Origin: Naegleria gruberi
Lineage: Eukaryota
DNA: 64,000 nt
NCBI GenBank assembly: GCA_000004985.1
Contig: GG738853.1
Strand: one strand, 5' to 3'
Shown piece after piece: positions 16,588 to 36,468 of the stretch. The notes beneath the pieces were generated by a model. That model saw only the letters and a list, made by a program, of their open reading frames with translations, was not told the origin of the DNA and searched no databases. The position numbers and the translations under genes were made by a program. Positions within the stretch are counted from its first letter, which is position 1, and every line of letters starts with the position of its first letter.

Positions 16588-18309
16588 ATGCTATCTTTTA
16601 AAGATTTGATCAAGTCCACAACTTCCCATCATGAAGAAGTGAAGGAACAAGAAAGTATTCGAAACCATCACTATAATCAACAAACAATTTTACCATCACA
16701 ATCACATCACCAATCAATAGTTCACCATAATGATAGAATAGAGAACAACAGCACCACTGGTTCACTTTATCAATCCCCGCCACCACCATCACCATTCGAA
16801 AGCTCATCAAATGGCTCCAACAGAAATTTCAATGAAAAGTTCAATCTACCAAGTATTGATACTCTATTGAATTCCAAACCACCAACTTTCTCATCACATT
16901 TGTATAACAACACAGTTTCTAATAACAATTTGGCAACTACCACTTCCACAACTAGATCACCACATCATCATCAACACTATTCAATACCCAACAATAACGG
17001 CACTATCCAACAACAGCAACACTATCAAACAACTGATATCCAAATGCAACGCTCTTATTCATCTTCTTCGGTACAACAACTCGGCACTTCAAACAAGTCT
17101 TATAACCATTATCCACACTCTTCGAATTCTTACAGTGATGCATCTCCTCCTACAAGCAGCAACTTTCTACAACATACCCAATATAATAGTAGCGTAACCC
17201 CAACGATATCTGCCACCACTGAGGGTTACTATCATTCTTCAAAGGGTTTTCCAAATTCATCTAATAATGCCGGTAGAAATTCTGAATTTGGGCAGGGTGT
17301 GTGTCCATCACATTCGAATAATGGTCATAATTATACTGGTTGGCAAAGCACTTCCAAAGAAGTTTCTCCTCCTCCTAGAGTAGTTACATCCTTAACAAAC
17401 ACAGCTTCCTATCCTAATCATCCTCATTACAATACTAATAGAGAAGCAAGACTAAATAGTAGTTTACCCTCACAACAATCCATGTACACTACGGCTACTA
17501 CAGCAACTAGTGAACCAACCCAGCAACACAATACAGCAACACCTTACCACCACTCAACTATTAGAGATTCCATTCCACAATCAAACCAACATGCTGACCA
17601 CCAACAGAAACCAAGATTTGAACATAATCTTTCATTAATACCTTCTTCCTCGCCACATCAATCATTAAGAGGATCATCCACCATACTTTCAACACTCAAT
17701 ACTACAGCTCCCAACAGTACTCAAGCAAATGCTTCCCAACAACAATCATCCCCCATGATGAATGGAAACATGGATGATGAAGAAGGTTTTGATGAAGCTG
17801 GTGGTTCTGGAACCTATCGTTTCAGAAAGGGATGGACAAAGGATGAACACATTCGTTTCCTCATAGGTGTACATCTCTTTGGTCGAGGCAATTGGAAGAA
17901 TATTTCAAAAGTCATTGCAGGTAAATCTCCAAAACAAGTTCAATCACATGCTCAAAAGTATTTCCTCAGACAGGAACAAACTTCCAAGACTAAACGTTCT
18001 ATTCACGATTTCAATCTTGAAGATTTGATAGAATTGTTAAAAGACGCCACTTATAGAAATACCATTCGAGAAGATACCACACAGAAGGGAAGAGATTTGG
18101 AAGATTTAGTCAACCGATTTGAATCTTCTTATTACAAAGACCAGACAAAGAATAATAGTAGTACCAGTAGCTCAGGAGGTGCTTCTGGATCACCATCATC
18201 ACCACATTCACCTGTAACAAATAGTCAATTGGGACGTGTTGATAACTCAACTGGTAAACAACTTGTACCAAATTCCAGAATCAACAAACCAAAAAACAAA
18301 CCTTATTAA
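16588..18309 (+). CDS. Myb/SANT domain protein of the SHAQKYF class, with Q/N/S-rich N-terminal low complexity. Putative transcription factor.
   Basis: ATG at 16588. The Myb repeat is WTKDEHIRFLIGVHLFGRGNWKNISKVIAGKSPKQVQSHAQKYF. The N-terminus MLSFKDLIKS echoes the KDIL motif of the two upstream genes. Confidence 0.7.
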   Translation: MLSFKDLIKSTTSHHEEVKEQESIRNHHYNQQTILPSQSHHQSIVHHNDRIENNSTTGSLYQSPPPPSPFESSSNGSNRNFNEKFNLPSIDTLLNSKPPTFSSHLYNNTVSNNNLATTTSTTRSPHHHQHYSIPNNNGTIQQQQHYQTTDIQMQRSYSSSSVQQLGTSNKSYNHYPHSSNSYSDASPPTSSNFLQHTQYNSSVTPTISATTEGYYHSSKGFPNSSNNAGRNSEFGQGVCPSHSNNGHNYTGWQSTSKEVSPPPRVVTSLTNTASYPNHPHYNTNREARLNSSLPSQQSMYTTATTATSEPTQQHNTATPYHHSTIRDSIPQSNQHADHQQKPRFEHNLSLIPSSSPHQSLRGSSTILSTLNTTAPNSTQANASQQQSSPMMNGNMDDEEGFDEAGGSGTYRFRKGWTKDEHIRFLIGVHLFGRGNWKNISKVIAGKSPKQVQSHAQKYFLRQEQTSKTKRSIHDFNLEDLIELLKDATYRNTIREDTTQKGRDLEDLVNRFESSYYKDQTKNNSSTSSSGGASGSPSSPHSPVTNSQLGRVDNSTGKQLVPNSRINKPKNKPY

Positions 18310-18714
18310 AGTTCTTTAAACATTCACTTCAGAAATTGAACTGTCATTTGACAATCATTTCAGGATAATTTTTTTTCAATATTAGCCGAAAGTGAGTAAG
18401 ACAATACTTGGCAAATATTTTGATAAAACATTAACATTGACTAACAGCCATTATGTTTTGTCATCCAAACAAGCCTTACTCTTCCTTGCTCGGATCAAAA
18501 CTCTGTTTACCTGTCAGCAATTAATGTCAACAGTCCATTTTCATCATAAAAAAAATTCTTGCTACCTCCACTTCATTCTACAAACCGTTAAAAACAGAGT
18601 TTCGAACTTGAGTTACAATTCCTCTTCCAACAACTGTTATCCTATATCATTGACAAGTTTCGAATAAACAATCGAATAACAATCCATCACATTCTAATAA
18701 TATAACACTTCAAC

Positions 18715-20243
18715 ATGGGAGCTTTTGCATCAAAGAAAGATAAAACAGATAACCCTAAAAAACCCCGAAACTCTTCAAATTCTCAACCAACAAATTCCTC
18801 AACAAGTGGTGTCAACAACAATACATCAACTTCATCTTTATCATCTAATTCTTCTACTGGACCTGTGGTAAAGAATTCACTTTCTGTTTTATTGTTGGGA
18901 ACGGGTGAAACTGGTAGGTTTTATATCTCATAGTTTAGTTTGAATAATTAATTGTTTCGTATAAATTTATTCGAAATTAGGTAAATCAACATTATTTAAA
19001 CAACTTGAATTGATTAATGGAGTGGGTATCATTAAAGAAAATGAAAAATCAATGTGGGCTACTCTAATTCATGGCAATGTAATTTCTGACATGAAAACTT
19101 TGATTGGAATTGTTGAGGAAATGGATGTTCAAGAAGTTTCGGATGAAATGCACGAATTAATTCAAGAAATATTAGAATTACCTGATCAAAATGTTACTAT
19201 TAATGAAGAATTATGTGAAAAGTTGAAGAAACTGTGGAATTATGAAGTAGTTAGGGAAGCTTATGATAATAGAGATCAAGCTTTGGATTCTGCTGAATAG
19301 TAAGTTTCTAATAATTTATAGTAATTTAGACGATTTGGGTTTTTAACATTTTCATAACATGAATTTCTCTAATTGTTGTTGACCTTTCGAATAATTATTC
19401 TTTTACAGTCTCTATAATAATATTGATAGAATTGCCAAGCCAGATTACTCACCAACAGTTGATGATGTTCTTCATTGTCGTGTAAAGACACTTGGTGTGC
19501 ATCATGTTGAACTCATGATGGATGGAAACTTTAAATTTAAATTGATTGATGTTGGTAAGTAGTTTCTATAAATGGATTTTGAGAATATTTATTGATTTGT
19601 TTACAATAATTTTTCTATAATTATTATTATAATATTTATAGGTGGTCAACGTTCTGGTAAGTTTTGATGATTTTTCTTGGTAGAATTTAACATTTAAAGA
19701 ACGAAGAAAGTGGCTTGAACGTAAGTTTTTTTATTCGAATTGGATATTTATAGTAATTTAATATTGGAAATGAATAATTGAATGATTGGAATATTGAAAT
19801 AATTTCGAATTGGATGAAAAATAGTCATGTCAGAAGTTGATGCTGTCATTTTCATGACATCTTTAGCTGAATTTGATCAAGAATGTTATGAGGAAAAAGG
19901 ATTTAAACGTGTTGTTGAATCTTTGGAAACATTTGAAAAGGTCATTAACAACAAACTCTTCCAAAAAGTTCCATTCATTCTCATGTTAAATAAGCGTGAC
20001 TTATTCGAGAGGAAGATTGCAAAGAAGAGTTTCAAGAAATATTTCCCAAATTATACAGGTGATGAAAAGAATCCCCAACAATGTATTGATTTCATTTCGA
20101 AAATGTTTTTGGGTAAATGTAAGGAACGATCAACTGATACCATTCTAGTTCAACCTCATTGTGCTATCAGTAAGGAAGAAACAGAACAAATGCTGCAACA
20201 TGCAAAGAACTTTGTAATAGGTCAATACTCAAAGAAGAAGTAG
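18715..20243 (+). CDS. Heterotrimeric G-protein alpha subunit, 6 exons: join(18715..18913, 18981..19299, 19409..19554, 19642..19656, 19700..19720, 19825..20243), about 372 aa.
   Basis: N-myristoylation-type MGAFASK. G1 LLLGTGETGKST is split by intron 1. Switch I is RVKTLGV. G3 DVGGQRSERRKW is encoded across 15-nt and 21-nt micro-exons. G4 NKRD. G5-like region is HCAIS. All introns are GTAAGT/GTAGGT...AG, and frames were checked against the ORF track. Confidence 0.85.
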
Positions 20244-20303
20244 AGCTGATAATAGAATAAATGATTTGTGTTTTATTTAACAATTTAGTGTGAATTAGAT
20301 AGT

Positions 20304-22370
20304 TTATCCACCCTTTGGTTTAACGAGAATTCTCAAAGCAAGGAAACCAATGATTCTGTAAGCGAGTGCCAAAGCAAAACAGAGACCAACATTGATCCAT
20401 ACATTGGACATGACACTAGTCATTTCCAAGTTTTCAATGACAGCTTCACCAGTTGGGAAAGCACATACTCCTGTTGATGGGCAAACAAACTTTTCACCAA
20501 TAAATTCATTCAGAACAAGGGCCTCAAATCCAAAGTGGAATAGAGACGTCCAATAAATCCATACAGTATAGTTTGGTAAATTGTTCACATTTCTGTAGAA
20601 GCCACCGAAAAGCATGAGCACAGTATTTACAAGTGGAATAATAGCCATAGCAACACCCATATTTGGCATCAATGTACCAATCATCAAACCAAGAGATTGA
20701 CCAGTCAAACCAATTACACCCAATAAGAACATGAACATGAAAAATCGTTCAATATTAGGATTAAGGTTCGTCATCCAATACACTATAGCACCAAACAATA
20801 GAGGGAAGAAAAACATGGTTGGCATTTCGGCAACACTTCTGGCAAGGAAATAACTACTGACTTTGTACATTTTTGCACCTCTTTCTCTCAAAAAGATTGG
20901 TTTTTCATCGTACATCATTGAAACTGAGGACATGGCAGAGCCCAAAAATTGATTTGTTAAAATGAAAAATAGCACACCGATTCTGTCTTGAACATTGGAT
21001 TGTTCATACCCCAGTTGTAAAAAGATCAGACCCACAAACAGAGACATGACAATATTCTGCACAAACTTGGCCATTGTCACCTTCTTATCTCTGATAATGT
21101 TAATGAACGCTCTCATAGTAAGCACTGTAAATTGTGCAAACCAACTGGAATTGTACGATGAAAATCTCTTAAGGTTACTATCTAATTGTTGGGTAGGTGG
21201 AATTTCTAATTGTACATTTTTGGAATAATGGTTCAAAACTCCTTCAATTCTTTCATCTTGTCTCTTCTTCTTTTCAAGATTGTCACCTGTGAGGGCAGCA
21301 TTTTCTGTAATAACATCCATCAAAAAGTCGGCAGGATTGTAACCAACTGGGCAAGGGTGTCCAATATCAGAAAAGTATGGCACAGCATCCTTAGCATTTC
21401 CGAAATAAGCAACACGTCCTCTAGAGAGAAGTAAAAGTTTGTCGAAAATTTCATAAATATTAGATGAAGGTTGGTGAATTGTCAAAACGACAGTACGTCC
21501 GTGAGTAGCCAATTTGGAAATTGTTTTCATGACATTGTAACTGGTCTTTGAGTCCAAACCAGTTGTAGGTTCATCCAAAAATAAGACACTAGGTTCAGTC
21601 AAAAGTTCAATACCAATACACAAACGCTTTCTTTCACCTCCTGAGATACCCTTTGTAAAACCAGGAATACCAACCTTAGTATCAGCAGCCTTTGAAAGAC
21701 CTAATTCCTCAATAATTGTATCAACTCTAGTCATTCTTTCTTTAAGTGGAATTTTACTGTCCAAACGCAACATGGCAGCATAACGTAATGATTCTCTTAC
21801 TGTCAAGTTGCCCATCAAGACGTCATCCTGTTGAACGAAAGCAGAAAGTGATCTAAAGGCCTTTCCTGCCTTTTCTCCGTTTGCTCTAATTTCACCTCCA
21901 GAAGCTTTAACTCTTTGTGAGAGAATATTCACTAATTCCGATGATTAATTTCAATCAATTTCATATCAATACTTACACAATGAAGTTTTACCAGCACCTG
22001 ATGGACCCTATATAATAGTTGAATTAGTCATTCCATTCATTATGTGTGTGACAAAACTTACCATAATAGCGAGGACAGAACCAGGGGCAACATAACCAGT
22101 CATTGGATGAAGAATTTGCTTTTCAACCTTCTTAAACATGTTACTCATTGTAAATTTGAATCTTTCCTTAGCAGTTAATAAATTGGAAGGTGCTGGAGCT
22201 TTAACCTTGACTTTATATTCCAAATTGTGCCATTCCAACTGAATAGGAGGCGATCTTCTAATAAACTTTTTATCATCAACAGGGCTGCTATTACTCAAGC
22301 TAACAATAGTCTCCTGCTGCTGAGGAATTGTATCAACAATTACATTATCGGGTAATTCAATATCAGTCAT
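20304..22370 (-). CDS. ABC transporter, G family (white-like half transporter, NBD-TMD), 3 exons: join(22370..22062, 22007..21977, 21931..20304).
   Basis: Walker A GPSGAGKTSLLNIL is reconstructed across two short introns (54 and 45 nt). ABC signature is ISGGERKRLCIGIEL. Walker B is VLFLDEPTTGLDS. Six C-terminal TM helices. First ATG is at 22370 (the track began at an upstream TTG). Confidence 0.85.
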
Positions 22371-32057: not shown

Positions 32058-32678
32058 TTACATGTCTTGAATGAGAGCACAACCATTGGCCATGTACAAT
32101 CCACCAGTCAAGATTAAAATCCAATCCACAAGCTGCCAAATACCACAAGTTGGAACTAAAAGCTTGGCAACTCCAATGCAAGTATATCCCATAATCTTCA
32201 ACGAATTTTATGTGAAATATTTCATCATCGGAATGTTAATTGATTTTTAACATCTTTCAACTTACAAATCTATCAACAGCAAGACCTCCAACAAAGAATG
32301 AAAGTAAGAACATGACCATTTTGGATTTTGTTTGACTAGCATCACAAACATAAGGTCTATTCAGGAAATTTAATAATTATTTAAGAAATTATTATTAAAA
32401 ACATCATCATCATGGTTAACATATGGAATAATTGAATAAGATCATCATGACAATAAAAAAACAACAACTACTTACGGAGTACTATTATCATAAGTTTCCT
32501 TGATAAACATTGGCATTGTTCCCTCATCATCAGTATTAATTTTAATCAGCTTCATCTTCTCAGGTTCAGCAGCAGCATTCAATGGTGAATCCAAAAAGAA
32601 GGTAACCAATGCCATGCTAATCATGAATGTAAAAAGTGAGGCAAGAAGAAATTTACGGAGAGATAATTGTTCCATCAT
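32058..32678 (-). CDS. TM2 domain-containing membrane protein, 3 exons: join(32678..32476, 32356..32266, 32195..32058), about 143 aa.
   Basis: Signal/TM N-terminus. TM2 signature CDASQTKSKMVMFLLSFFVGGLAVDRF | IMGYTCIGVAKLLVPTCGIWQLVDWILIL is assembled across two GTAAGT...AG introns. Not present as a single ORF in the track. Confidence 0.6.
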
Positions 32679-36393: not shown

Positions 36394-36397
36394 GGTG

Positions 36398-36468
36398 TAG
36401 GAAGACAGGGAATCGAACCCTGATCTTAGGAACCACAATCCCATGTTCTACCACTGAACTATCTCCCT
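36398..36468 (-). tRNA. tRNA-His (anticodon GUG).
   Basis: Folded by hand on the minus strand. Acceptor AGGGAGA/TCTTCCT (one G-U pair). D-arm GTTC-AGTGGTA-GAAC. Anticodon stem TGGGA/TCCTA with loop TTGTGGT. T-arm CAGGG-TTCGATT-CCCTG. Discriminator A. No encoded CCA and no intron. Confidence 0.8.

Follow-up and report, generated by a model that had tools for sequence, protein, structure and literature searches.

We analysed a 64,000-nucleotide (nt) stretch of Naegleria gruberi DNA (assembly GCA_000004985.1, contig GG738853.1), referred to as the window below, and found in it a gene for a G protein alpha subunit (G-alpha) at 18715-20243 on the + strand. The G3/switch II motif of this apparently functional gene is very probably cut into two constitutive micro-exons of 15 and 21 nt; judging from the sequence, we put the probability of this reading at nearly nine in ten. 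The region 18300-21000 of the window was read and the exons were assembled from it. The gene has six exons and five introns, and its coding sequence (CDS) of 1119 nt encodes a protein of 372 amino acids (aa). The initial annotation had proposed a micro-exon-split G3 motif at 19642-19720, with exons of 15 and 21 nt, GTAAGT donors, and TATAG and AAAG acceptors, in a 372-aa protein carrying GTGETGKST and HCAIS. The coordinates, the exon sizes, and the splice sites proved to be exact, the protein was reproduced by joining the exons, and the core of the proposal held on every in-silico test.

Exon 1 (18715-18913, + strand, 199 nt) contains the start codon with a TAA stop in frame four codons 5' of the ATG, the N-terminal MGAFAS, a low-complexity stretch rich in Ser, Asn, and Thr, and the beginning of the P-loop, GTGET(G). 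Intron 1 (18914-18980, +, 67 nt; GTAGGT..TTAG) interrupts in phase 1 the Gly codon of GET/G/KST, where the slashes enclose the residue at the junction. Exon 2 (18981-19299, +, 319 nt) encodes the remaining P-loop and the helical domain, and is followed by intron 2 (19300-19408, +, 109 nt; GTAAGT..ACAG; phase 2, SAE/Y/LY), which has TTTAACATTT inside. Exon 3 (19409-19554, +, 146 nt) extends from switch I (HCRVKTLG) to beta3 and ends with LIDV(G), and intron 3 (19555-19641, +, 87 nt; GTAAGT..TATAG; phase 1, DV/G/GQ) separates it from micro-exon 4 (19642-19656, +, 15 nt). The sequence of micro-exon 4, GTGGTCAACGTTCTG, is preceded by TTTATAG and followed by GTAAGT, and encodes (G)GQRS(E) including the catalytic Gln224. 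After intron 4 (19657-19699, +, 43 nt; GTAAGT..AAAG; phase 1, QRS/E/RR) comes micro-exon 5 (19700-19720, +, 21 nt), of which the sequence, AACGAAGAAAGTGGCTTGAAC, is preceded by TTTAAAG and followed by GTAAGT; it encodes (E)RRKWLE(L), where the switch II helix begins and the conserved Trp lies. Intron 5 (19721-19824, +, 104 nt; GTAAGT..AATAG; phase 1, LE/L/MS) leads to exon 6 (19825-20243, +, 419 nt including the stop codon), which encodes the remaining switch II, switch III, NKRD (G4), HCAIS (G5), and alpha5, and ends with GQYSKKK.

All five introns are of the GT-AG type with a GC content of 15-24%. Introns 3, 4, and 5 (15-23% GC, all in phase 1) fall within 36 coding nt and, if retained, bring in-frame stops at once; their removal gives the joined reading DVG/GQRS/ERRKWLE/L. 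The DxxGQ of the G3/switch II motif is readable only once the 15- and 21-nt exons are joined. Both exons have micro-exon size (27-30 nt or less), are bordered by canonical splice sites, AG on the 5' side and GTAAGT on the 3' side, and keep the reading frame.

The exon joins were evaluated by enumerating all GT-AG exon chains through 19480-19900, with a maximum of four introns and a minimum intron length of 25 nt, and by scoring them against the N. fowleri ortholog described below. Among 17,118 paths, 11,570 of which were open, the chain given above ranked first with a score of 402 as compared with 381 for the second, and of the eight top-scoring chains listed, it alone followed the ortholog colinearly without a gap. 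The Pfam G-alpha score of the protein was 321.3 bits with the 12 micro-exon residues and 268.4 bits without them, a difference of 53 bits, with the junction codon being only approximate in the skip constructs. The resulting switch II string, DVGGQRSERRKW, is the commonest variant among homologs (102 of 240). The + strand of the window has only 12 copies of GTAAGT, four of which are intron starts of the G-alpha gene. The micro-exon pattern is not due to chance. The ratio of nonsynonymous to synonymous substitution rates (dN/dS) was 0.13 against the N. fowleri ortholog and 0.10 against the N. lovaniensis ortholog, although dS was saturated. Since dN/dS is ~0.1, the comparison indicates that the G-alpha gene is clearly under purifying selection and is functional.

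The gene is represented in the public databases by EFC47756.1/XP_002680500.1 ('predicted protein, partial [Naegleria gruberi]'; P0001, 277 aa), which is 100% identical to our model over residues 53-329 and carries both micro-exon joins, as seen in DVGGQRSERRKWLELMSEV and in the longer excerpt KLIDVGGQRSERRKWLELMSEVDAV. This entry runs from KNSLSV to SKMFL. It is without the first 52 residues, which comprise the start codon, MGAFAS, and the low-complexity N-terminus, and without the last 43 residues, which comprise G5 HCAIS, alpha5, and the C-terminus. The micro-exon junctions are already known, since XP_002680500.1 joins the micro-exons. The initial annotation had held that such tiny exons are routinely missed; tblastn with the spliced protein found exons 1, 2, 3, and 6 and indeed skipped residues 223-233, but the annotators of the public model did join them. 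For the N. gruberi protein, neither a genomic nor a transcript copy is on record.

Orthologs are present in N. fowleri (CAG4718785.1; P0002, 359 aa) and N. lovaniensis (XP_044548522.1; P0121, 368 aa) with ~69-71% identity. Their loci (L001, L002, L003) were retrieved and the proteins were placed on them with an exact spliced mapper. Orthology is supported by the upstream Myb-domain gene (16588-18309, +, in the window; L001 1311-3464; L002 1513-3627), because this neighbour is syntenic in the three species, with 77-81% aa identity in its conserved part. The downstream neighbours differ, an ABC transporter gene being found in N. gruberi and adh_short and HMGL-like genes in N. lovaniensis. The orthologs have GTGETGKST, HCRVKTLG, the low-complexity N-terminus, and an MG..S start in common with the N. 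gruberi protein, starting with MGGIFSS and having HCAI(D) as G5, whereas their switch II reads QRA in place of the QRS of N. gruberi. Both orthologs have introns at GET/G/KST (phase 1) and SAE/Y/LY (phase 2), which correspond in position and phase to introns 1 and 2. Introns 3, 4, and 5 are absent from both, so that the entire 3' part is a single 592-nt exon, and DVGGQRAERRKWLELMSEV is encoded uninterrupted (GAT GTT GGT GGT CAA CGT GCT GAG AGA AGA AAA TGG CTT GAA TTA ATG). The initial annotation had pointed to the dictyostelid gpa family for comparison. That link was not borne out, as the closest relatives are from Naegleria (Heterolobosea); a dictyostelid gpa origin is ruled out, with the top matches being N. 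gruberi (100%), N. fowleri (69%), and N. lovaniensis (in the same 90% cluster) and with the Naegleria synteny kept.

Because both orthologs encode DVGGQRAERRKWLELMSEV without interruption, the three introns that make the micro-exons are lineage-specific. Intron sites were also mapped in seven heterolobosean paralogs, namely N. lovaniensis P0005, Willaertia magna P0009, P0143, P0152, and P0199, N. fowleri P0154, and Acrasis kona P0174. These paralogs show 31-38% identity and have 1-3 introns each, which are very short (39-75 nt) in several of them, and none has two introns close enough to each other for a micro-exon. The site of intron 1 (phase 1) is common to the two orthologs only, and that of intron 2 (phase 2) to the two orthologs and W. 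magna P0152 and P0199. Intron 3 has no match in the orthologs or the seven paralogs. The intron 4 site is found in N. lovaniensis P0005 and W. magna P0009 (GQRN/E/RKKW, phase 1), but not in the two orthologs. Intron 5 has no exact match in the orthologs or the seven paralogs. Between KWVH and CFEG, A. kona P0174 has a genuine 39-nt intron (L009 1237-1275; GTAAGT...TATAG) that contains an in-frame stop. This intron is in phase 0 and lies one nt from the intron 5 site, and this proximity could reflect intron sliding or an independent insertion. Metagenome scans for further relatives found none, either with the degenerate MSEVDAVIFMT pattern or with automatic peptide patterns, the latter being poor.

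From this distribution, we infer that introns 2 and 4 are older than the split of these paralogs. Intron 4 would then be an old intron that was precisely lost in the fowleri/lovaniensis lineage, which is probably the case. The precise loss of the 3' intron or introns in this lineage would have occurred most simply by recombination with reverse-transcribed mRNA, the two 5' introns being kept. Recombination with a partial complementary DNA (cDNA) would also have deleted introns 3 and 5, if they were present at that time. The retention of 5' introns together with the absence of adjacent 3' introns is the classic pattern of cDNA-mediated loss.

A different history, in which introns 3 and 5, and in a strong version also intron 4, were inserted on the N. 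gruberi branch after its split from N. fowleri and N. lovaniensis, is a credible possibility that falls a little short of an even chance. In that case, two or three insertions into 36 nt of the most conserved G-alpha motif would have produced the micro-exons only recently and as a by-product. Clustered gain is favoured by the absence of exact position and phase matches for introns 3 and 5 in both orthologs and all seven paralogs. Five introns in a CDS of 1.1 kb are also unusual for N. gruberi, because the genome mean is 0.7 introns per gene (PMC5862402). In addition, introns 2 and 5 have an identical stretch of 15 nt, ATTTATAGTAATTTA, and intron 5 contains an internal direct repeat, TTCGAATTGGAT, near both of its ends. 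The exact presence of the intron 4 site in paralogs of two genera nevertheless makes at least intron 4 more simply ancestral, and the Acrasis intron one nt from the intron 5 site also argues against a recent origin of the whole cluster. The junctions of introns 4 and 5 (CTG/AA and AAC/TC) are unlike AG/GT proto-splice sites. Introner-like copies of the introns were not found elsewhere in the window, blastn of the five introns giving only short AT-rich matches, which is a weak test confined to 64 kb. Moreover, the introns kept in the orthologs are 5' and the missing ones are 3' and adjacent to one another, as in cDNA-mediated loss. The intermediate history, in which introns 3 and 5 are recent insertions of the N. 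gruberi lineage flanking an ancient intron within the 36 most conserved coding nt, is put forward tentatively, its chance being clearly below even.

Several points weigh against the reading of constitutive micro-exons and the history proposed for their introns. No cDNA, expressed sequence tag, or RNA-seq junction was seen. The exact 372-aa product was not found in a collection of ~15 billion proteins, and therefore no transcript-derived copy is present there. The truncated ends of XP_002680500.1 suggest a homology-guided model, so that its joins may not support splicing independently. The acceptor of intron 4 is AAG, as compared with YAG in the other eight putative introns inspected. With regard to the history, introns 3 and 5 could have been gained on the N. 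gruberi branch or lost in the fowleri/lovaniensis branch with the same number of events, and an intron site common to paralogs can occasionally reflect parallel insertion.

In animals, the splicing machinery has difficulty with micro-exons of 27 nt or less, and animal micro-exons are typically alternative, enriched in neurons, flanked by long introns, and in need of dedicated factors (PMC8378409). The micro-exons of animals and plants (27-30 nt or less) resemble the present ones in size class and canonical splice sites, and tend to escape similarity searches and ab initio gene finders. Unlike animal micro-exons, those of N. gruberi are flanked by introns of 43-104 nt, and their inclusion is presumably constitutive. 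We propose that each short intron would be recognised across itself (intron definition), because introns 3-5 all have the donor GTAAGT, which is perfectly complementary to U1, because short introns are normal locally, and because TTAACAT is enriched downstream of GTAAGT. Recognition would use the U1-complementary donor, the branch-site-like TTAACAT, and the first downstream AG, and under intron definition the length of the exon would not be limiting, unlike what has been described for animal micro-exons (PMC8378409, PMC2397502).

The combination GTAAGT-N20-50-TTAACAT occurred five times against 0.1 expected. The four copies of TTTAACATTT that the window contains (19342, 19686, 37682, and 54339, +) each lie inside a short putative intron that starts with GTAAGT, and a further site, on the - strand, is at 32233-32265. 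The copy in intron 4 (19686-19695) is located a few nt 5' of the 3' AG, and in both introns 2 and 4 the acceptor is the first AG 3' of TTTAACATTT. We infer that TTAACAT is a candidate branch-site motif for N. gruberi. As to intron length, the neighbouring gene for an ABCG-type transporter has, within 21932-22061 on the - strand, an exon of 31 nt (22007..21977) with GTAAGT...AG introns of 54 and 45 nt on either side, and the Acrasis intron has 39 nt. The 31-nt exon encodes the Walker A motif GPSGAGKTSL, which makes it the second nucleotide-binding motif on a very small exon in the window. RNA folding of the introns gave z-scores close to 0 for introns 3 and 4 and an end-to-end z-score of -2.1 for intron 5, which is marginal against shuffles, and Rfam gave no match within the G-alpha gene.

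It might be supposed that the micro-exons are subject to regulated alternative splicing, such that skipping of one or both would yield an in-frame G-alpha devoid of switch II and its catalytic Gln, perhaps as a dominant-negative or a nucleotide-locked isoform. Both micro-exons are indeed symmetric (phase 1-1, with lengths divisible by 3), the constructs without the micro-exon residues are still recognised as G-alpha at 268-294 bits, and exons of 27 nt or less are difficult to splice in animals (PMC8378409). However, the perfect GTAAGT at all three donors argues for efficient constitutive use, and the function needs no skipping option, as the orthologs have the same residues in one uninterrupted exon. 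The residues that would be skipped include the invariant G223, Q224, R225, E227, R228, K230, and W231. In short-intron protists, moreover, the usual alternative event is intron retention and not exon skipping (PMC2397502). Regulated skipping is thus very improbable, and constitutive inclusion of both micro-exons is preferred. A disrupted pseudogene, in which three AT-rich insertions broke switch II and the splice sites are coincidental, would fit the stops and the intergenic-like AT-richness of the intervening segments, but is ruled out by the dN/dS (0.10-0.13 over the whole CDS, with the catalytic residues intact) and by the chain enumeration, each segment starting exactly with GTAAGT (12 per 64 kb on the + strand) and ending with AG, and the removal of the segments restoring perfect gapless colinearity with the orthologs.

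The protein matched the Pfam G-alpha family PF00503 over profile positions 15-331 of 333, with an E-value of 9.1e-96 and a score of 321.3 bits (cut-off, 48.8), and PDB chains of Gq, Gi, and G13 matched at ~1e-54 (best ~6e-54; 4gnk, 7sq2, 1gp2, and 3ab3 are examples). The G1 P-loop GxxxxGK[ST] is present as G62-TGETGKST-70, with G62, G64, G67, K68, S69, and T70 invariant in an alignment of 48 sequences. The helical domain between G1 and switch I is present, residues ~75-190 aligning to Gq throughout. Switch I has its RxxT (R197-VK-T200; R197 invariant, T200 at least 90% conserved), and switch II has its DxxGQ in D220-VGG-Q224-RSERRKW231, all these residues being invariant in the alignment. The NKxD of G4 is N289-K-R-D292. 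In G5, HCAIS, Cys346 and Ala347 are kept, the Ala being at least 90% conserved, and the flanking Thr are changed to His and Ile. All catalytic residues (G62/G64/G67/K68/S69, R197, T200, D220, G223, Q224, and NKRD) are intact.

The non-canonical P-loop and G5 region described in the initial annotation are both real, but they are not peculiar to one sequence, since they are kept in the N. fowleri and N. lovaniensis orthologs. Of 240 homologs, only four carried the Ser-to-Thr variant GTGETGKST, and P0001, P0002, and P0121 from this orthogroup account for three of them. HCAI(S/D) was found only in this orthogroup among the 240 homologs, and TCAI in 11 others. By this comparison, GTGETGKST and HCAI(S/D) are conserved traits of the orthogroup. 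The mammalian G-alpha q/11, i, and 12/13 have the same architecture of a Ras-like and a helical domain, and DVGGQRSERRKW is identical in Gq. The mammalian proteins differ in that identity is ~30-35%, the N. gruberi P-loop is GETGKS (Ser to Thr), and the N. gruberi G5 is HCAIS as compared with TCATD.

An AlphaFold2 model was made for the N. fowleri ortholog. It had a mean predicted local distance difference test (pLDDT) value of 86.6 and a predicted template modelling (TM) score of 0.82, and superposed on Gq and G13 at ~1.9 A with a target-normalised TM of ~0.9. Helices of the helical domain were modelled at 76-183 and alpha5 at 339-358. Because residues 1-36 are modelled as disordered (pLDDT <50) and only a single helix of ~10 residues (34-43) precedes beta1, a long alphaN helix for G-beta-gamma binding is not predicted in the orthogroup. 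This contrasts with the mammalian G-alpha, which have a long alphaN where the model of the Naegleria ortholog has the disordered first 36 residues. The N-terminal ~50 residues (18715-18870 in the window; P0002 residues 1-36) are rich in Ser, Asn, and Thr and of low complexity, and may raise the question of whether G-beta-gamma is bound in the usual way. The MGAFAS N-terminus fits the myristoylation consensus, and the C-terminal tail is unrelated to receptor-coupling tails such as ...DCGLF. On the model, the protein is predicted to have the canonical G-alpha fold. Features of the orthogroup are GTGETGKST, HCAI(S/D), an N-terminus that is disordered and of low complexity, and a C-terminal tail that has diverged.

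Thirteen G-alpha subunits have been listed for N. fowleri, six of which were characterised (Bosch et al. 2022, PMC9283941). In that study, primer pairs are given for Nf G-alpha 1-8, and not one of them matches the locus of the N. fowleri ortholog. This leaves the ortholog as either an unlisted subunit or a member of the uncloned G-alpha 9-13, and the orthogroup is, for the same reason, biochemically uncharacterised.

Two other features of the window were observed. The palindrome TTCGAA is present in 61 copies, whereas 16.8 are expected from a first-order Markov model, and is denser outside the long open reading frames (29 copies in 35% of the window). Copies are located, for example, at 18601, 18659, 18970, 19386, 19734, and 19804, in the 5' leader and introns 1, 2, and 5 of the G-alpha gene. 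A gene for tRNA-His (GTG) is located at 36397-36468 on the - strand, between two open reading frames of the + strand, with a score of 69 bits for the Rfam tRNA model.

The new results are limited to the complete gene model, the absence of the switch II introns from the N. fowleri and N. lovaniensis orthologs, and the position of one of these introns at an old heterolobosean site. The gene model, now corrected to full length with start and stop (372 aa), is of small practical value as a replacement for the 277-aa public fragment. The three adjacent introns that N. gruberi has and that N. fowleri and N. lovaniensis precisely lack are of modest use for the study of intron evolution in the Heterolobosea. 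If introns 3 and 5 are indeed recent insertions around an ancient intron, the locus would be a datable case of clustered intron gain and micro-exon birth in an intron-poor excavate.

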